Below, one piece after another: positions 541 to 8,044 of a stretch of DNA of 30,914 bases. A program made the position numbers and the translations under genes. This DNA comes from a virus (Duplodnaviria; Heunggongvirae; Uroviricota; Caudoviricetes): positions 1 through 30,914 of IMG/VR virus record IMGVR_UViG_2537562231_000009; one strand, given 5' to 3'. The notes beneath the pieces were generated by a model, which saw nothing but the letters and a program-made list of their open reading frames with translations, did no database searches and was not told the origin of the DNA. The stretch's first letter is position 1. Each line of letters begins with the position of its first letter.

Positions 541-612
541 GGTGTGCTCCTTATTTATACATAACGAAAAACGCCTCGAGTGAAGCGTTATTAGTATGCG
601 GTAACGCAGCGC

Positions 613-981
613 TCAGGCGGCTTTGATAGTCATATCATCTGAATCAAATATTCCTGATGTATCGATATCGGTAATTCTTATTCCTTCGCTACCATCCATT
701 GGAGGCCATCCTTCCTGACCATTTCCATCATTCCAGTCGAACTCACACACAACACCATATGCATTTAAGTCGCTTGAAATTGCTATAAGCAGAGCATGTT
801 GCGCCAGCATGATTAATACAGCATTTAATACAGAGCCGTGTTTATTGAGTCGGTATTCAGAGTCTGACCAGAAATTATTAATCTGGTGAAGTTTTTCCTC
901 TGTCATTACGTCATGGTCGATTTCAATTTCTATTGATGCTTTCCAGTCGTAATCAATGATGTATTTTTTGATGTTTGACAT
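613..981 (-). CDS. Hypothetical early-left protein, 122 aa
   Basis: Track ORF; GAGGA Shine-Dalgarno-like element upstream of ATG 981; co-oriented with neighbouring early-left genes. Confidence 0.55.
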   Translation of the reverse strand: MSNIKKYIIDYDWKASIEIEIDHDVMTEEKLHQINNFWSDSEYRLNKHGSVLNAVLIMLAQHALLIAISSDLNAYGVVCEFDWNDGNGQEGWPPMDGSEGIRITDIDTSGIFDSDDMTIKAA

Positions 982-1120
982 CTATTCATATCCTCATAGA
1001 TAAAAAATCGCCCTCACATTGGAGGGCAAAGAAGATTTCCAATAATCAGAACAAGTCGGCTCCTGTTTAGTTACGAGCAACATTGCTCACATAGCAGACT
1101 CGTAAATCTGCTATAGGCGC

Positions 1121-1279
1121 TTATTCGCATCGCATGACAACATCAAATTTTTCGAGATTACTTTGTCGCAACAATCCTTCTTCTACGCGGTCAGCTTTTC
1201 TATAATTATCAAATTCGAAATGTTTAATTACTTCTTTCGTTTCTCGCTCTATAACTTCAACGATGTATTTCTTATTCAT
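1121..1279 (-). CDS. Small hypothetical protein, 52 aa (MNKKYIVEVIERETKEVIKHFEFDNYRKADRVEEGLLRQSNLEKFDVVMRCE)
   Basis: Its ATG overlaps the TAA stop of the upstream gene (TAATG coupling); below the track size cut-off. Confidence 0.4.
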   Translation of the reverse strand: MNKKYIVEVIERETKEVIKHFEFDNYRKADRVEEGLLRQSNLEKFDVVMRCE

Positions 1280-1575
1280 TACTCATCACCTATGGCTTTT
1301 CTGATTGCTGCGAGACCTTTATTAACAGCTCCATACCATTCTGGATATGTTGTCGTTGTTCTATTTTTGGTTTGCTTAAGTAATAACTGAAGTGCTTCGA
1401 GAAGGTCAGGTGCTGCCGCTATTAGATTGGCATCTTCAATGCATTGAACTTCCTCACAGATTGCAATATACGAACGCCAGCCTGTGCCATTTTCAAGAGA
1501 GTCTGCCTGGATGATTTTAATCTCATCGCCATCCATCATTATTTCCCATTTACCTTCAGTACCTTTAAATTCCAT
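1279..1575 (-). CDS. Hypothetical early-left protein, 98 aa
   Basis: Track ORF; GAGG element 6 nt upstream of the ATG. Confidence 0.55.
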   Translation of the reverse strand: MEFKGTEGKWEIMMDGDEIKIIQADSLENGTGWRSYIAICEEVQCIEDANLIAAAPDLLEALQLLLKQTKNRTTTTYPEWYGAVNKGLAAIRKAIGDE

Positions 1576-1621
1576 GTTAGCCTCTGTTATTTATGCCAAA
1601 AATAAAGGCCGACTATGCGGC

Positions 1622-2092
1622 CTAGTAGAATACCCAATTTTCTGTTTCTTGGTTGTGTCCAAAGTTATATTCAATATCTGGTGTTGATGTATCAATATTT
1701 TTCATCCCATCAACAAGAGTTGATACAACAGCCAAATCTTGTTTTATTCTCATTAAATGGTATTTCTTCCGGCGCAATAAACTTTCAATAGCAAGTTTCT
1801 TCGTTGGGAATGCAAAAGATCTTTCTGCATTTTTTGCTACTTTCTTAATTGCATATCTATTTCTCCTTTGTTTCCATTCCTGTAACCACTGATTTGGTGC
1901 TGGTTTAAAATTAACAATCCAATGCGCAGGAACCAACCATGCATAATGCTCTGTCTGATGAAAAGCTATATATTGAAGTGCGAATATTTTTATCCCATCT
2001 TCTTCAACTGTCGCCTGGAATCTCCAGAAAACAGGCATTCCATCATGTTCAGTTTCTGATTCAGGAAAAGGTACGCTCCATGATTTTGTCAT
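1622..2092 (-). CDS. Hypothetical early-left protein, 156 aa
   Basis: Track ORF; GAGGTGA Shine-Dalgarno upstream of the ATG. Confidence 0.55.
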   Translation of the reverse strand: MTKSWSVPFPESETEHDGMPVFWRFQATVEEDGIKIFALQYIAFHQTEHYAWLVPAHWIVNFKPAPNQWLQEWKQRRNRYAIKKVAKNAERSFAFPTKKLAIESLLRRKKYHLMRIKQDLAVVSTLVDGMKNIDTSTPDIEYNFGHNQETENWVFY

Positions 2093-2150
2093 ATCTCACC
2101 TCAAATAAGTGGTTTGCTGCCTAATTTCATTTTCTGGCGACCAACACAAG

Positions 2151-2534
2151 TCACCTCGCCGTCAGTTGTTTTGATTTCCGGTAGCCTGCCGCGTAAATGG
2201 CTACGTTTGGAAGACATACACCAGTTTCTGGTTGCTTATGTCCAAACTCATTCGCGTACACAATGGCCGCTCGCTCCAGATTGCGTCTGTATTCTTTCTG
2301 TTGCCAGATCACGTCCTGTGCCATGAACTTAATTGGCTTAGCGTCTTCTATGCGCTCAGGCGTTTCGTGAGTACCTTTAGCCTGAATCTGCGCTCTGCTT
2401 AGAGTAGGGCGGTGTAATACTTCTGAACTTATTGCTTCTTCGCGGGCCAGTACGCCGTTAGCTAATGCCTTTGCCTTTAAACGCTCACGACGACGAGAAC
2501 GTGAATTGCCTTTGAACTGAGTTCTGCGTGTCAT
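2151..2534 (-). CDS. N: Antitermination protein N (P22 gene-24 / phage-21 type)
   Basis: N-terminal arginine-rich motif TRRTQFKGNSRSRRRERLKAKA; C-terminus VAIYAAGYRKSKQLTAR resembles the P22 N C-terminus; AGGAGG Shine-Dalgarno; lies downstream of a boxB hairpin. Confidence 0.8.
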   Translation of the reverse strand: MTRRTQFKGNSRSRRRERLKAKALANGVLAREEAISSEVLHRPTLSRAQIQAKGTHETPERIEDAKPIKFMAQDVIWQQKEYRRNLERAAIVYANEFGHKQPETGVCLPNVAIYAAGYRKSKQLTAR

Positions 2535-2699
2535 ATAGACCTCCTGATGAACTTTGGTGGTGTGGTAGGTGGGAGACCCATTTCGACCTGTTTCGGCCTA
2601 CTTCAATTCGGCAATAGTCCCGCAGGCCTCGCCGCTTTACGTGCGACATATTCCCGTCCATGAACCATTCACCACACCCCAAAGTTCACTTTGGTTATT

Positions 2700-2714
2700 G
2701 CGCTTTGTCAGCGC
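2700..2714 (-). promoter_or_regulatory. nutL boxB-like hairpin (GCGCTGACAAAGCGC on the minus strand)
   Basis: Matches P22-type boxB in the leader of N; a near-identical element sits after cro (nutR). Confidence 0.55.
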
Positions 2715-2991
2715 CGTAGATTCATATTCGAATCGTTGTATATTCACCGCCCTGGTGAGTAATGCGTCCTGCTGATGACGATAATAATGAACCAATAGTT
2801 CGACATTATCAAGAACTATTGGTACGAATTTTGGTGATTTATTAACTCTACGAAGTATGATTCTGATATATAAGGAAATTTATTTTTGAAAATGTGGCTG
2901 ATGAAGGTTATGCGGCAGGGATCATAACTGCATGGTTTAGCGAGTTACATCAATAAATACAATTGGTTATGTTTTTTAGGTGGGCGAACGT

Positions 2992-3022
2992 GAGGCAAAG
3001 AAAACCCGGCGCGGAAGCCGGG
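2992..3022 (-). terminator. Rho-independent terminator closing the cI operon
   Basis: Minus-strand hairpin CCCGGC-TTCCGC-GCCGGG followed by TTTTCTTTG, immediately after the stop at 3031. Confidence 0.65.
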
Positions 3023-3030
3023 TTAATGCG

Positions 3031-3651
3031 TTAATGCTGGGGAGTGATTTTTTTGTTGTCTGTTGGCTGGGTATTTTGTGGCGGCGCTTGCAAAGTGGAA
3101 GGCTGTTGCAAAGGTGCGTGGTCTGACTTTAAAGCTGATACCAGCCCGGGAATCGCAACTATTACAGCGATAATGACACTAAAAATGGCTAATCGTATAG
3201 AAATACCCGACTGAACACCACTAATTGCGGTATTAACCCCTGTTATTTGTCCTTGAATTCCTTCGAATCTCCCATTAATTGCTTTTATATCGCCAGCAGC
3301 GCTATCCATCTTTCCATCGATCTTGGACGATAGAGAGCTTATGGCTGCATTAAGTGATGCAAATTGGACATTAACGCTTTCACGAGATAGAGCCATGTCA
3401 GCCCTAATGGAGGAAGCAATAGACTCCATCTCTGCTTTATTAGCAGCTAAGCGAGCATCAAGTTCCTCTCTGCTGATCGTTCCCACTTCTTCCTCCGTTT
3501 GTGGCGGTTTTATGTAATTATTTTGCACCTTGGTGGGAGAATTATCAAATTCAGCCTCAAAATCAGAACCGCCAACAACCTTCAACCTCCGGCTTTCAGA
3601 TATGTTGGTGTCTTGCTTTCCATGATTATTTAAATTACTGTCGTCACTCAT
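3031..3651 (-). CDS. Coiled-coil protein with one C-terminal transmembrane helix, 206 aa (third gene downstream of cI)
   Basis: Track ORF; long heptad-like region (ELDARLAANKAEMESIASSIRADMALSRE...) followed by hydrophobic IRLAIFSVIIAVIVAIPGLVSAL; ATG overlaps the upstream stop (ATGA). Confidence 0.6.
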   Translation of the reverse strand: MSDDSNLNNHGKQDTNISESRRLKVVGGSDFEAEFDNSPTKVQNNYIKPPQTEEEVGTISREELDARLAANKAEMESIASSIRADMALSRESVNVQFASLNAAISSLSSKIDGKMDSAAGDIKAINGRFEGIQGQITGVNTAISGVQSGISIRLAIFSVIIAVIVAIPGLVSALKSDHAPLQQPSTLQAPPQNTQPTDNKKITPQH

Positions 3652-4136
3652 AATAGCTCTACGGTGAAAAATGATTCATTTTTATGAAGTTCATTTTTAG
3701 GGTCTTCATTATCTTGCAATATCCCTATAACACTATACAGCCCTTTAGCTGGGACCCTAATTTCTTTCAATGTTACTATTACCTGTCCGCCAACCCCTGT
3801 TTCAAAATGGCTATCTTTCGTATCGATGAAAAGTGAAACTGATTCCGAAGAGCCGTCAGGGAATTGAATTTCCTCACCTTTTTTTATAATTAGGTGCGCG
3901 GGGATTACCATAATACCCAAATTATATCTTGAATTTGGTTTCAACCCGATCATACCAACCCTGAAATCAATTGATAGCCGCGCAGGAAATTCATTGCATG
4001 TAAAATTAAGCGTCGGTTGGTTGGGTTCTTCGCTGCTATCAAATGGGGTTATAAAAGATATTCTTTCTAAATTAAGTGCCATAAATTCTCCTGCATCGCT
4101 GTATGCTCTACGAGCATCTCTGCGACCATCCATCAT
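3648..4136 (-). CDS. Hypothetical soluble protein, 162 aa (second gene downstream of cI)
   Basis: Track ORF; low-GC coding sequence; translationally coupled to the 206-aa gene. Confidence 0.6.
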   Translation of the reverse strand: MMDGRRDARRAYSDAGEFMALNLERISFITPFDSSEEPNQPTLNFTCNEFPARLSIDFRVGMIGLKPNSRYNLGIMVIPAHLIIKKGEEIQFPDGSSESVSLFIDTKDSHFETGVGGQVIVTLKEIRVPAKGLYSVIGILQDNEDPKNELHKNESFFTVELL

Positions 4137-4152
4137 CCAAACGTCTCTTCAC

Positions 4153-4494
4153 TCATCCGAAGAAGCAGCAATCCGGGTCAGCACGCACAAGCTCAAGCGC
4201 ATCAGTCAGCGAAAGTTCAGTACTGTACTGATGCCATTTCATATCCTTCCGCATCCAATAGATTTTCCATCTATCCAGAGAACGTATGTACTTGATTCTT
4301 GCTGATGGCAGGATGTTTGTTTCACCTGGGTTGCCCTGCCACACGGGGCGCTGTTCGCCGATATCTATCGTTTGGTCATTGATGCTATAAACAATATCCA
4401 GTTCATTGCGGATATGTTCAGGCGGCCTTATGCTTTCAATGAATTGGTGAACTTCTTTTTTGACCGCTTGATATTCAAGGTCAGTGAACGCCAT
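4153..4494 (-). CDS. Hypothetical protein, 113 aa (first gene downstream of cI)
   Basis: Track ORF; GAGGAGG Shine-Dalgarno upstream of ATG 4494; 60 bp after the cI stop. Confidence 0.6.
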   Translation of the reverse strand: MAFTDLEYQAVKKEVHQFIESIRPPEHIRNELDIVYSINDQTIDIGEQRPVWQGNPGETNILPSARIKYIRSLDRWKIYWMRKDMKWHQYSTELSLTDALELVRADPDCCFFG

Positions 4495-4554
4495 CTATCC
4501 TCCTCACCCAAACGTTTCTTCTGGCCACTGGTTACCAGCTATGTGACGATGAAG

Positions 4555-5262
4555 TCACGAACTTTTCAGCCACTCCCTTGCCTCGATGTCATCCAGATGG
4601 CGAGATTGCTTCAGAATACCAGCTACATACTCCACCTTTGCTACTTGATGATAAGGCAACGTTATAGGCCTGTGATCCTGGTTAATGCTTGTAAATTGGT
4701 ATTCTCCATCTCTGTCATAGCCAAGAACCTTAATCATGTTGTGTCCTTCAACGGTTCTGACAAACACCTCATCACCCGGGAATACTTTGGTGTTAGGCTC
4801 AATGAGTACATATTCTCCTGATTTTATTCTGGGCCACATGCTGTCTCCTTTCACACGAAGACCAAAGGCATCTGGATCATCGCTATAAATTTTGAGCCAC
4901 CCATCGCGCTCTTCGGTCATCTCGATGGCACCATCAACACCAAGAATTGCCTCACCAACCACGCGCACTAACCCTTTTTTTAATTTGCCAACAAATGAAA
5001 GAGTATCTTCATCATTCGCTCCATTTAACGAAGTGCCGTGCTGAAGCCAAACAACATCAACGTTTAGAAATTTCGCAAGCGCATTCATTTTTTCCTGACG
5101 CGGTAAAGACTCAGCATTAAACCATTTGCTAACGCCTTTGGACGAAAGAGAAAGGGCACGGGCTATAGCCATTCCCCTACCATGTTCATCAAGACCAGCT
5201 TCTTTACAGGCTTGCGCTAGCCGCTGGGCGAATTCTTTGCGCACTTTTTCATTCTGAACCAT
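4555..5262 (-). CDS. cI: CI-type prophage repressor (N-terminal HTH, C-terminal S24/LexA-like autopeptidase)
   Basis: HTH segment near the N-terminus; C-terminal GDSMWPRIKSGEYVLIEP Ser-Lys dyad motif; divergent from cro across an operator region; no Shine-Dalgarno before the ATG, as for leaderless lambda cI. Confidence 0.9.
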   Translation of the reverse strand: MVQNEKVRKEFAQRLAQACKEAGLDEHGRGMAIARALSLSSKGVSKWFNAESLPRQEKMNALAKFLNVDVVWLQHGTSLNGANDEDTLSFVGKLKKGLVRVVGEAILGVDGAIEMTEERDGWLKIYSDDPDAFGLRVKGDSMWPRIKSGEYVLIEPNTKVFPGDEVFVRTVEGHNMIKVLGYDRDGEYQFTSINQDHRPITLPYHQVAKVEYVAGILKQSRHLDDIEAREWLKSS

Positions 5263-5340
5263 GAGTACGATACTAAAGCACTTGCAAAAACTTTCAGTTC
5301 AACCATAATACGTACTGAAAGTACGAAAAAGGATATTCCT
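5263..5340. promoter_or_regulatory. OR-like operator/promoter region between cI and cro
   Basis: Three related operator-like elements: CGTACTGAAAGTACG, AAACTTTCAGTTCA and a degenerate ACGATACTAAAGCA copy. Confidence 0.6.
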
Positions 5341-5568
5341 ATGCAAAATCTTGATGAGCCGATTAAAGGTGTCGGCATCCCTGAAGTTGCGAAGGCTTGT
5401 GGAGTTAGCGAAAGGGCTGTCTATAAGTGGCTCAAAAACGGCTTCCTCCCTAAGACTGAGTTTTTTGGGAAAACTAAATACGCATCAAAAATCGAAGAGA
5501 TTTCTGGTGGCAAATATCAAGCAAGCGAAATGCTTGAAATAAGCAAAAAGAACCTTCTGGCTGCATAA
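5341..5568 (+). CDS. cro: Cro-like HTH repressor, 75 aa
   Basis: Divergent from cI; HTH IPEVAKACGVSERAVYKWLKNG; AAGGA Shine-Dalgarno. Confidence 0.8.
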   Translation: MQNLDEPIKGVGIPEVAKACGVSERAVYKWLKNGFLPKTEFFGKTKYASKIEEISGGKYQASEMLEISKKNLLAA

Positions 5569-5575
5569 GTAACAC

Positions 5576-5621
5576 CGCTCTTTTCACAATGGACATTCGT
5601 CCTACGTCGCTGACAAAGCGA
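5576..5621 (+). promoter_or_regulatory. nutR-like site (boxA CGCTCTTTT, boxB TCGCTGACAAAGCGA)
   Basis: boxA-like sequence followed about 25 nt later by a boxB hairpin nearly identical to the one in the N leader. Confidence 0.55.
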
Positions 5622-5706
5622 GTCCCAATATATCTGACCAACTAAGGCCATATGCGTTTCCACGCATACCTTTCAACTAGCTATTCACTATTGGAAATCT
5701 TAAGAA

Positions 5707-6003
5707 ATGGAACAAACAAGTTACAGCAAGCTAACACAGCGAGAAATTGATCGCGCAGAAACAGATTTACTCATCAACCTGTCAACGCTTACCCAGCGCG
5801 GTCTGGCAAAGATGATTGGCTGTCATGAATCGAAGATAAGCAGAACGGACTGGAGATTTATTGCTTCGGTCTTGTGTGCTTTCGGAATGGCATCAGACAT
5901 CAGTCCGATTAGCAGGGCTTTTAAGTATGCGCTTGATGAAATCACAAAGAAAAAATCCCCGGTGGCCGCCGGGGACTCTAAGCAAATTGATATGCAATTC
6001 TGA
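5707..6003 (+). CDS. cII: CII transcriptional activator
   Basis: Position after cro; C-terminus ITKKKSPVAAGDSKQIDMQF parallels the lambda CII C-terminus. Confidence 0.85.
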   Translation: MEQTSYSKLTQREIDRAETDLLINLSTLTQRGLAKMIGCHESKISRTDWRFIASVLCAFGMASDISPISRAFKYALDEITKKKSPVAAGDSKQIDMQF

Positions 6004-6035
6004 GGGAATTACTGGATCAATCTACAGGAGTCATT

Positions 6036-6974
6036 ATGACAAATACAGCAAAAATACTCAACTTCGGCAGAGGTAACTTTGCCGAACAGGAGCGTAATGT
6101 GGCAGATCTCGATGATGGTTACGCCAGACTATCAAATATGCTGATTGAGGCTTATTCAGGCGCAGATCTGACCAAGCGACAGTTTAAAGTGCTGCTTGCC
6201 ATTCTGCGTAAAACCTATGGGTGGAATAAACCAATGGACAGAATCACCGATTCTCAACTTAGCGAGATTACAAAGTTACCTGTCAAACGGTGCAATGAAG
6301 CCAAGTTAGAACTCGTCAGAATGAATATTATCAAGCAGCAAGGCGGCATGTTTGGACCAAATAAAAACATCTCAGAATGGTGCATCCCTCAAAACGAGGG
6401 AAGTTCCCCTAAAATGAGGGACATCCCTCAAAACGAGGGAAAATCCCCTAAAACGAGGGATAAAACATCCCTCAAATTAGGGGATTGCTATCCCTCAAAA
6501 CAGGGGGACACAAAAGACACTATTACAAAAGAAAAAAGAAAAGATTATTCGTCCGAGAATTCTGGCGAATCCTCTGACCAGCCAGAAAACGATCTTTCTG
6601 TGGTTAAACCGGATGCTGCAATTCAGAGCGGCAGCAAGTGGGGAACAGCAGAAGACCTGACCGCCGCAGAGTGGATGTTTGACATGGTGAAGACCATCGC
6701 ACCATCAGCCAGAAAACCGAATTTTGCAGGGTGGGCTAACGATATCCGCCTGATGCGTGAACGTGACGGACGTAACCACCGCGACATGTGCGTGCTGTTC
6801 CGCTGGGCATGCCAGGACAACTTCTGGTCCGGTAACGTGCTAAGTCCGGCCAAACTCCGCGACAAGTGGACCCAACTCGAAATCAACCGTAACAAGCAAC
6901 AGGCTGGCGTGACAGCTGGAAAACCAAAACTCGACCTGACAAACACTGACTGGATTTACGGGGTGGATTTATGA
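6036..6974 (+). CDS. O: Replication initiator O
   Basis: N-terminus MTNTAKILNFGRGNFAEQERNVADLDDGYARLSNML is near-identical to lambda O; origin iterons lie inside the gene. Confidence 0.9.
   Translation: MTNTAKILNFGRGNFAEQERNVADLDDGYARLSNMLIEAYSGADLTKRQFKVLLAILRKTYGWNKPMDRITDSQLSEITKLPVKRCNEAKLELVRMNIIKQQGGMFGPNKNISEWCIPQNEGSSPKMRDIPQNEGKSPKTRDKTSLKLGDCYPSKQGDTKDTITKEKRKDYSSENSGESSDQPENDLSVVKPDAAIQSGSKWGTAEDLTAAEWMFDMVKTIAPSARKPNFAGWANDIRLMRERDGRNHRDMCVLFRWACQDNFWSGNVLSPAKLRDKWTQLEINRNKQQAGVTAGKPKLDLTNTDWIYGVDL
6384..6545 (+). repeat. ori-lambda-type replication origin: about six 17-19 bp iterons (ATCCCTCAAAACGAGGGA family) plus an adjacent A-rich tract
   Basis: Direct repeats read in the sequence within O, followed by AAAAGAAAAAAGAAAAGATTATT. 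Confidence 0.75.
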
Positions 6975-7672
6975 AAAACATCGCCGCACAGATGGTTAAC
7001 TTTGACCGTGAGCAGATGCGTCGGATCACCAACAACATGCCGGAACAGTACGACGAAAAGCCGCAGGTACAACAGGTAGCGCAGATCATCAACGGTGTGT
7101 TCAGCCAGTTACTGGCAACTTTCCCGGCGAGTCTGGCTAACCGGGACCAGAACGAACTGAATGAAATCCGCCGCCAGTGGGTTCTGGCTTTCCGGGAAAA
7201 CGGGATCACCTCGATGGAACAGGTTAACGCAGGAATGCGCGTAGCCCGTCGGCAGAATCGACCATTTCTTCCATCACCCGGGCAGTTTGTTGCATGGTGC
7301 CGGGAAGAAGCATCCGTTATCGCCGGACTGCCAAACGTCAGCGAGCTGGTTGATATGGTTTACGAGTATTGCCGGAAGCGAGGCCTGTATCCGGATGCAG
7401 AGTCTTATCCGTGGAAATCGAACGCGCACTACTGGCTGGTTACCAACCTGTACCAGAACATGCGGGCCAATGCACTGACTGACGCGGAATTACGGCGCAA
7501 GGCCGCAGATGAGCTTGTCCATATGACTGCGAGAATTAACCGTGGTGAGGTGATTCCTGAACCAGTAAAACAACTTCCTGTCATGGGCGGCAGACCTCTA
7601 AATCATGTTCAGGCTCTGGCGAAGATCGCAGAAATTAAAGCTAAGTTCGGACTGAAAGGAGCAAGTGTATGA
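6971..7672 (+). CDS. P: Replication protein P (DnaB helicase loader)
   Basis: Lambda P-like sequence; ATGA overlap with the O stop. Confidence 0.9.
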   Translation: MKNIAAQMVNFDREQMRRITNNMPEQYDEKPQVQQVAQIINGVFSQLLATFPASLANRDQNELNEIRRQWVLAFRENGITSMEQVNAGMRVARRQNRPFLPSPGQFVAWCREEASVIAGLPNVSELVDMVYEYCRKRGLYPDAESYPWKSNAHYWLVTNLYQNMRANALTDAELRRKAADELVHMTARINRGEVIPEPVKQLPVMGGRPLNHVQALAKIAEIKAKFGLKGASV

Positions 7673-7959
7673 CGGGCAAAGAGGCAATTATTCATTACCT
7701 GGGGACGCATAATAGCTTCTGTGCGCCGGACGTTGCCGCGCTAACAGGCGCAACCGTAACCAGTATAAATCAGGCTGCGGCTAAAATGGCGCGGGCAGGA
7801 ATCCTTGTCATTGATGGTAAGGTCTGGCGAACGGTGTATTACCGGTTTGCTACCAGGGAAGAACGGGAAGGAAAGGTGAGCACGAACCTGATTTTTAAGG
7901 AGTGTCGCCAGAGTGCCGCGATGAAACGGGTATTGGCGGTATATGGAGTTAAAAGATGA
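7669..7959 (+). CDS. ren: Ren protein
   Basis: MTGKEAIIHYLGTHNSFCAPDVAALTGATVTSINQAAAKMARAG is near-identical to lambda Ren. Confidence 0.85.
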   Translation: MTGKEAIIHYLGTHNSFCAPDVAALTGATVTSINQAAAKMARAGILVIDGKVWRTVYYRFATREEREGKVSTNLIFKECRQSAAMKRVLAVYGVKR

Positions 7960-8018
7960 CCATCTACATCACTGAGCTTGTAACAGGCCTGCTGGTAATC
8001 GCAGGCCTTTTTATTTGA
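7956..8018 (+). CDS. Possible 20-aa hydrophobic peptide (MTIYITELVTGLLVIAGLFI) overlapping the ren stop and terminator hairpin
   Basis: ATG overlaps the ren TGA (ATGA); GGAG 8 nt upstream; speculative. Confidence 0.25.
   Translation: MTIYITELVTGLLVIAGLFI
7984..8016 (+). terminator. Rho-independent terminator after ren
   Basis: Hairpin CAGGCCTGC-TGGTAATC-GCAGGCCT followed by TTTTATTT. Confidence 0.5.
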
Positions 8019-8044
8019 GGAAGAGTAATTGGAGGCTTTAAGAA

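Follow-up and report, generated by a model that had tools for sequence, protein, structure and literature searches.

Introduction

The interval between cI and N is a hotspot of mosaicism, occupied by rexAB in lambda and by bstA in prophage BTP1, as stated in PMC8585504 and in PMC7067206, which both refer to Degnan et al. 2007. In phage 933W the occupant is the kinase gene stk, which, according to PMC3564112 (citing Tyler 2004 and Friedman 2011) and PMC3681748, is reportedly transcribed together with cI and aborts the infection by HK97; the 933W-type Stk protein also matches the PADLOC PD-T4-6 models (E 1e-37). The slot and the defence cargo in it are already well known, in line with the initial annotation of the DNA analyzed here, which had regarded the site as an established defence hotspot. 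For phages HK244 and HK542, two hypothetical genes instead of rexAB have been present in GenBank since 2007.

In this study, the window, that is, the whole stretch of 30,914 nucleotides (nt) from a virus of Caudoviricetes (IMG/VR record IMGVR_UViG_2537562231_000009), was analyzed with emphasis on three minus-strand genes, named A, B and C, which lie directly downstream of cI at 3031-4494. Genes B and C make up a cassette allelic with rexAB and stk, and C belongs to a family of predicted tail-anchored coiled-coil proteins that is found behind at least four exchangeable partners. With a probability of about 0.5, B-C was considered to act in phage exclusion as a sensor and a membrane effector, which would bring about abortive infection in a Rex-like manner; we infer this defence function from the position and the architecture of the two genes.

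Genes B and C form a discrete cassette in the cI-N slot

The borders of the cassette were defined by blastn. Compared with the 933W-type phage JLK-2012 (L001), the window was 99% identical over 1689-3025 and again over 4114-8025, and the exchangeable 1088 bp between them on the minus strand (3026..4113), which hold genes B and C, were replaced in JLK-2012 by 1694 bp encoding L0084 (153 amino acids, aa), Stk (348 aa) and an open reading frame (ORF) of 54 aa. Phages HK542 and HK244 possess a lambda-type cI with lambda-like PRM/PR and are devoid of gene A, which encodes a DUF3024 protein. They were 98% identical to the window over 2952-4151, a range that comprises both genes, the terminator after them and a short linker ahead of them, and their B starts 50 nt after cI, where rexAB would be. 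Based on these comparisons, B-C is a discrete cassette that occurs behind two immunity types and does not include DUF3024. In this way, the rexAB-equivalent position claimed in the initial annotation was supported by HK542 and HK244 and by the presence of L0084-stk in the same interval of 933W-type phages, and the synteny check that it had proposed for related prophages revealed variable cargo at the site (B-C, L0084-stk or rexAB). Its treatment of the three genes as one module had to be given up, since B-C occurs without DUF3024 and DUF3024 occurs without B-C.

Both flanks of the cassette are conserved. The left border (4113/4114) is the end of a short linker at 4114..4132 on the minus strand (TGGATGGTCGCAGAGATGC), which is common to the window and the 933W-type phages and is present in a diverged form in HK542. 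Next to it, directly after the DUF3024 stop, a non-coding relic of the lambda cI 3' end is located at 4133..4150 on the minus strand (GAAGAGACGTTTGGATGA, reading EETFG and a stop). A longer relic of the same kind lies at 4504..4530 on the minus strand (CAGTGGCCAGAAGAAACGTTTGGGTGA, reading QWPEETFG and a stop), between the cI stop and the DUF3024 Shine-Dalgarno sequence; it matches the genuine C-terminus of HK542 cI (...VIASQWPEETFG, then a stop) and appears to be an upstream linker or a recombination scar. Positions 4133-4150 and 4504-4521 constitute an 18-nt direct repeat, D1, which flanks DUF3024 (89% identity, spacing 371). The cI of the window itself is of 933W type, and both relics resemble scars or anchors from the recombination of modules. 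On the right, the intrinsic terminator (2995..3024, minus strand) and the bases beyond it are common to the window, the 933W-type phages and HK542. The cargo flanks can therefore serve as recombination anchors, with DUF3024 placed between the duplicated anchor. These borders explain how such cargo passes between phages that differ in immunity, and the linker (…GAAGAGACGTTTGG…GTCGCAGAGATGC) and the terminator could serve as anchors in the search for more of it. Between cI and the terminator before pL lies the accessory-gene ("moron") slot of a 933W-immunity lambdoid prophage, with two independent cargo units.

Disrupted copies of the cassette were also observed. In complete E. coli genomes, B-C was interrupted by IS1 in two (NZ_CP063473.1 and NZ_CP031134.1; H150 and H151) and partly deleted, with 72% coverage, in NZ_CP027459.1 and NZ_CP027445.1 (H159 and H160). 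These insertions and deletions may reflect cost or toxicity of B-C, or chance.

C follows exchangeable partner genes

A total of 31 distinct loci were collected from a scan of IMG/VR together with seven exact-protein look-ups, and they came from Escherichia, Klebsiella-like bacteria, Citrobacter, Salmonella, Yersinia, Pectobacterium, Cedecea and Leclercia. The C homologue was the second gene of a pair in all 31, where it overlapped its partner or started within 18 nt of it, and the pair directly followed a prophage repressor gene in 29 loci, with DUF3024 optionally between. The adjacent repressors were S24-type cI proteins of at least four sequence groups, or short Rac-like helix-turn-helix proteins with YdaS/YdaT neighbours. 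In the two exceptions (L050 and L053), and also in L007 (5695-6699), the pair was found at the prophage end near tail-fibre genes and dinI. Such prophage ends, near dinI and genes for tail fibres or tail assembly, represent a second site for cargo of the cI-N type, which was either a partner-C pair or, in L060 (4001-6130), DUF3024 with the stk cassette.

At least four partner families were distinguished, namely the B family (F3), F12 (92-97 aa), F13 (98-101 aa) and F25 (112 aa). The possibility that the last three are remote B homologues was rejected, as neither hmmsearch nor hhalign detected any relationship of them to B or to each other, and the alternative partner families had no match in Pfam. 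A 149-aa partner from Salmonella (F87) was a marginal relative of B (hidden Markov model E 1.7e-5). The F25 partners (L046-L049, e.g. L046 3482-3820) contain two CxxC pairs, ICQICGN … CDHCAH, which suggests a zinc ribbon. The most distant B homologues were likewise located after an S24-type cI: P0050 precedes a C homologue of 44% identity, and P0056, the most divergent one (L062 3501-4288), precedes a 122-aa protein with no detectable homology to C. This 122-aa protein is built like C, with an acidic disordered N-terminus, a coiled coil and a transmembrane (TM) helix at its extreme C-terminus.

The two parts of C behaved differently when the partner changed. The median normalised score of the C core was 0.48 across partner families compared with 0.52 within the same family. 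The score of the C N-terminus fell to the background level, 0.07, between partner families (0.05 for unrelated partners), compared with 0.15, and up to 0.59, within a family, and all C proteins paired with the B family shared the N-terminal motif L(K/R)V(V/I)GG(S/T)xF(E/D)A. Given that the N-terminus of C and not its core changes with the partner, the exchanged unit is the partner gene together with the 5' end of C, which places a module boundary inside gene C. Mainly on account of this joint exchange, the partner was proposed to bind the N-terminal tip of C. It is tentatively suggested, as a view that may well need to be revised, that B-C is the founding example of a defence family of Enterobacterales prophages, in which a conserved effector C would be combined with a disordered tip and an upstream gene exchanged jointly between no fewer than four unrelated "sensor" families. 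The plug-in architecture that belongs to this suggestion, with specificity modules exchanged by recombination inside the effector gene, is put forward with the same caution.

The exchange of partners and sites also bears on whether B-C is an addiction module or a module of prophage physiology similar to toxin-antitoxin systems, with C as a holin-like toxin and B as its neutraliser, that stabilises the prophage or tunes the timing of induction or lysis (cf. 434 Hex). Two small coupled genes with the membrane protein in second place would suit such a module, as would the 122-aa analogue in L062, which resembles small holin-like tail-anchored proteins; the IS1 insertions and partial deletions described above may point to a cost, and non-defence functions occur in the slot according to PMC3564112. 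But the cassette has been exchanged freely among unrelated repressor types and also resides at the distant second site (L007, L050 and L053), so that a function linked to one given repressor or lysis system is disfavoured, and arms-race genes more typically show such diversified partners. Moreover, no holin or XhlA family was matched by Pfam in 22 members of the C family, B-C is located in the immunity region and not in the lysis region, and neither B nor C was assigned to any known family of toxins or antitoxins by Pfam, NCBIfam or PADLOC. This explanation was accordingly considered rather unlikely.

C is a predicted tail-anchored protein with a coiled-coil stalk

Gene C (3031..3651, minus strand) encodes a predicted tail-anchored membrane protein of 206 aa, the candidate conserved effector of the pair. 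Its start codon overlaps the stop codon of B in the sequence ATGA, and this 4-nt overlap was present in all loci with the B family; the two genes are translationally coupled. The protein falls in phrog_5820, which has no functional annotation. The alignment of 22 C homologues and the structure model agreed on a layout of four parts. Residues 1-59 (3475..3651, minus strand) are a variable N-terminal region that is predicted to be disordered, with a predicted local distance difference test score (pLDDT) below 55. Residues 61-136 (3244..3471, minus strand) form a conserved helix in the model and a coiled-coil stalk rich in heptads (e.g. IDGKMDS / VDGDVKA / INGKFEG / IQGQITG / INTAISG). Length differences among the homologues in this stalk are insertions of exactly 7 residues, which is the pattern that a coiled coil should show. 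Residues 149-174 (3130..3207, minus strand) are the only TM helix (LAIFSVIIAVIVAIPGLVS), with a mean Kyte-Doolittle hydropathy of 2.71, and residues 175-206 (3034..3129, minus strand) make up a Pro/Gln-rich tail, which is presumably periplasmic. In the tail, P184 is invariant and I187, Q188 and P190 are conserved at 90% or more; the family motif QP(I/V)IIQVPQ is partly degenerate in the window, where it reads QQPSTLQAPPQ.

Because the sole TM helix is C-terminal and a signal peptide is lacking, the stalk is expected in the cytoplasm and the short tail in the periplasm. The overall model of C was poor (pLDDT 58; predicted TM-score, pTM, 0.23), and its confidence was too low to justify a fold search. 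The database matches of C were all below threshold (Baculo_PEP_C, NPV_P10 and the ClyA-type toxins SmhB, AhlB and MakE), and a PDB sequence search returned weak matches to trimeric coiled coils and SmhB. These coiled-coil and toxin matches were taken to reflect composition only and were not used for classification.

The topology of C is relevant to a second explanation, superinfection exclusion at the inner membrane, in which DNA entry is blocked without killing, as by HK97 gp15, P22 SieA and T4 Imm, and the tail of C contacts the injection machinery or its membrane receptor. Single-TM prophage proteins that block DNA entry exist, C is membrane-anchored with a Pro/Gln-rich tail motif conserved in the family, and B-C is presumed to be expressed from its prophage slot. 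However, about 150 of the 206 residues of C and the whole of B are predicted to lie in the cytoplasm, the window's own copy of the tail motif is degenerate, and an obligate, swappable cytoplasmic partner is hard to square with a passive blocker, which makes an entry block unlikely, although it is the alternative that we would consider first.

The predicted envelope location of C would also agree with lysogenic-conversion cargo unrelated to phages, for instance an envelope or stress function for the host, and prophage morons include such genes, e.g. lambda lom and bor, as mentioned in PMC7067206. The strict association of the cassette with the site beside the repressor, its allelism with two proven systems of exclusion and the fast turnover of partners point instead to phage-phage conflict, and a host function of this sort was judged improbable.

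B is a small soluble protein with a predicted beta-sandwich fold

Gene B (3648..4082, minus strand) encodes a soluble protein of 144 aa, the candidate partner or sensor subunit. The longest ORF would give 162 aa, the size in the initial annotation, but this start was rejected, because the extra 18 codons cross the non-coding relic, and the homologues and the Shine-Dalgarno sequence AGGAG, which lies 5 nt upstream, favour ATG 4082. Every homologue begins at that position, with M-x-N-x-E-R-I-S-F. The middle gene is thus most likely 144 aa in length, and the annotated sizes of 113 and 206 aa for the other two genes were retained.

No hydrophobic, TM or signal-like segment was found in B. It belongs to phrog_5893, for which no function is annotated, and scans of Pfam, NCBIfam and PADLOC gave no match. 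The family is tiny: 12 clusters were obtained in a search of 5.8 billion proteins, and an exhaustive profile search of 1.84 billion proteins yielded 23 representatives, about 15 of them with 136-153 aa, and no relative with an annotation. Only chance or weak matches (TRPM7) were returned by a PDB sequence search. The AlphaFold model was an all-beta fold of seven strands with moderate confidence (pLDDT 70.7), from which B is predicted to be a cytoplasmic seven-strand beta-sandwich similar to Ig, FN3 or CBM domains, and it looks like a binding domain rather than an enzyme.

Gene A is a separately mobile DUF3024 gene

Gene A (4153..4494, minus strand) has a strong Shine-Dalgarno sequence, GAGGAGG, and its product of 113 aa matched Pfam DUF3024 (PF11225) over the full length, at 108.7 bits against a cutoff of 24.9 (E 2.4e-31, profile positions 2-112 of 112). 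It also corresponded to the PADLOC candidate single-gene system PDC-S43 (PDLC05018, E 7.2e-42, positions 1-115 of 115) and to phrog_3467, whose function is unannotated. The statement of the initial annotation that none of the three proteins could be assigned to a named family was therefore valid for B and C in the family scans and incorrect for A. The DUF3024 homologues were always standalone proteins of about 113 aa without domain fusions, and the PDB sequence search found no solved relative. In the literature search, no mention of the DUF3024 family was found, and PDC-S43 appeared as a predicted candidate in one genome survey only. In a panel of O157:H7 strains (bioRxiv 10.64898/2026.07.23.740414), PD-T4-6 and PDC-S43 together were unique to one strain, as would be expected if both calls arose from the adjacent stk and DUF3024 genes of a single 933W-type prophage.

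DUF3024 was detected without B-C at several places: behind a Sakai-type cI (81% nucleotide identity; L018), followed by a 173-aa ORF; behind the cI of the Salmonella P22-like phage SE1 (L017), followed by a ParA-like gene; beside a P63C-domain gene in an island of Yersinia ruckeri (L061); and at a prophage end of Erwinia aphidicola, beside dinI and ahead of the L0084-stk cassette (L060). At the Erwinia locus, DUF3024 had 60% protein identity and the stk cassette 75% DNA identity, and owing to this difference the two were regarded as separate homology blocks. DUF3024 is a recurrent first gene before varied co-oriented cargo (L0084-stk, ParA-like gene, 173-aa ORF, P63C-domain gene or B-C), including two sites that are not repressor-adjacent, and it may cooperate with the downstream cargo or only mark a landing pad.

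A single three-component defence system of DUF3024, B and C would agree with the common orientation of the genes with no terminator between them, with the repeated position of DUF3024 ahead of variable cargo, and with the intact trio in 18 of 5426 complete E. coli genomes. In the same genomes, however, B-C was present in 51 and DUF3024-type sequence in 253. B-C lacks DUF3024 in HK542, HK244 and most other loci, DUF3024 is paired with stk, ParA-like, P63C or other genes instead of B-C, and the recombination scar left by the duplicated lambda cI 3' relic separates DUF3024 from B-C. Such a system was considered quite improbable, and the comparison of loci indicates that DUF3024 is a separately mobile single gene and not part of B-C.

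Transcription unit and layout of the window

As the initial annotation had described, three co-oriented genes follow cI and end at a terminator. They correspond to minus-strand ORFs at 4153-4494 (113 aa), 3648-4136 (162 aa, the longest ORF of the middle gene) and 3031-3651 (206 aa), and the terminator that closes the cI-A-B-C unit has a hairpin at 3024-3003 of the minus strand with 8 bp, 6 of them GC pairs, followed by UUUUCUUU. Its folding energy was -17.3 kcal/mol (z = -3.9), and 0 of 200 shuffled sequences folded as well. The terminator scan revealed no other terminator-like site on the minus strand between cI and pL, hence none between the three genes. The PRM transcript should read through DUF3024 into any following cassette, because in 933W the gene stk, whose co-transcription with cI was reported, is located beyond DUF3024, and because the window and 933W share 99% identity between cI and position 4114. 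Genes A, B and C are probably co-transcribed with cI from PRM in the lysogen. An Rfam scan of 2000-5800 found no RNA family.

The ratio of nonsynonymous to synonymous substitution rates (dN/dS) for genes A, B and C was 0.09-0.22 where dS was unsaturated; elsewhere dS was saturated and dN was low to modest. The three are real genes under purifying selection. The low GC content asserted in the initial annotation was reproduced, with 0.425 for 3031-4494 and 0.375 for gene B compared with 0.494 for the whole window, and such low values are typical of morons.

By gene content, the left part of the window is the immunity and early region of a lambdoid prophage. It comprises N (2151-2534, minus strand; Pfam N_peptide), the 933W-type cI repressor (4555..5262, minus strand; 235 aa, HTH_3 and Peptidase_S24), and the early genes cro, cII, O and P on the plus strand. 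The cI region showed 98-99% identity to phage 933W/JLK-2012 and relatives by blastn, and the interval 3031-4494 was 100% identical to a prophage of E. coli O10:H32 strain NMBU-W12E19. Downstream of N, the pL operon (600-2100, minus strand) had an even lower GC content of 0.35-0.39. Several of its ORFs (156, 98, 52 and 122 aa) could not be annotated and may represent additional accessory genes; in JLK-2012, the equivalent region carries an IS3 insertion.

Discussion

The features of the B-C cassette suggested the following course of phage exclusion. C would be the conserved and constitutive effector, held in the inner membrane by its one C-terminal helix, with a coiled-coil stalk of about 75-90 residues that projects into the cytoplasm, is probably oligomeric, with a trimer predicted on the basis of the weak database matches, and ends in a variable disordered N-terminal tip. 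B, or an alternative partner, would be a small cytoplasmic protein that is bound to this tip and sets the specificity. B might keep C inactive until a phage product releases it, or might itself recognise a component of the infecting phage; C, once triggered, would perturb the membrane by depolarisation or permeabilisation, and the infection would be stopped.

Several considerations weigh against this proposal. In PADLOC, Pfam, NCBIfam and PHROGs, B and C had no sequence similarity to RexA, RexB or known defence proteins, and the literature search on HK542/HK244, on the hotspot, on tail-anchored abortive-infection proteins and in the DefensePredictor text and supplements found no phenotype for B-C. 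The structure models are only moderate for B (pLDDT 70.7) or poor for C (pLDDT 58, pTM 0.23). With only one TM helix, C offers little on which a pore could be built, and the conserved motif in the presumably periplasmic tail of C hints at a function outside the membrane. Adjacent genes that are inherited together would co-vary to some extent even without contact, which affects the argument for binding of B to C. A non-defence function is also represented in the slot by Hex of phage 434, which modulates repressor cleavage according to PMC3564112.

If phage exclusion by B-C is true, the cassette would provide a tractable model, with small genes, a cultivable phage (HK542) that carries it, and an isogenic series of alleles, rexAB, stk and B-C, between identical flanks. 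For the relatives among Shiga-toxin phages, the cargo of the slot affects which phages superinfect the lysogens.

The likeness of B-C to described systems was compared one by one. The ClyA family of alpha-pore-forming toxins (SmhB, AhlB, MakE and MakA) gave weak profile matches on the distal coiled coil and the hydrophobic helix of C (E 0.006-0.7), but C is much shorter and is tail-anchored, and the matches are probably driven by composition; MakE scored 15.7 bits against a cutoff of 360, and SmhB matched with E 0.013 over 58 residues. For PDC-S43, gene A is a full-length member, and this system is a purely computational candidate that is separate from the B-C cassette. The gene for BstA of prophage BTP1 follows the repressor gene, with which it presumably has a promoter in common, and shows conserved synteny across diverse prophages (PMC8585504), as is the case for the position of B-C, but BstA is a single large cytoplasmic DNA-binding protein with no homology or architectural likeness to B or C.

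The Stk cassette is allelic with B-C: behind one and the same cI and DUF3024, both occupy exactly the interval that runs from the linker (…GTCGCAGAGATGC) to the shared terminator. The two differ in content, since the former encodes L0084 (153 aa), a kinase (348 aa) and the product of a small ORF, and B-C is devoid of a kinase. No kinase domain was found in A, B or C by the Pfam scan; the kinase is confined to the allelic cassette of the 933W type. As in RexAB, B-C consists of two genes, the soluble one first and the membrane one second, that lie directly after cI on the same strand, ahead of the terminator and pL/N, and presumably on the PRM transcript. RexB is a polytopic protein (4-TM) and RexA a protein of 279 aa. 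In contrast, C combines a long coiled coil with one TM helix at its C-terminus, B is a predicted beta-sandwich of 144 aa, and neither matched the Rex models in PADLOC, Pfam, NCBIfam or PHROGs. As an exclusion system, B-C would be mechanistically distinct from the other occupants of the cI-N slot (RexAB, Stk and BstA), in that a single-pass coiled-coil effector is combined with exchangeable partners. What is added to the known cargo of this slot is the definition of the cassette borders, a tail-anchored coiled-coil family with at least four exchangeable partners, and the module boundary inside gene C.

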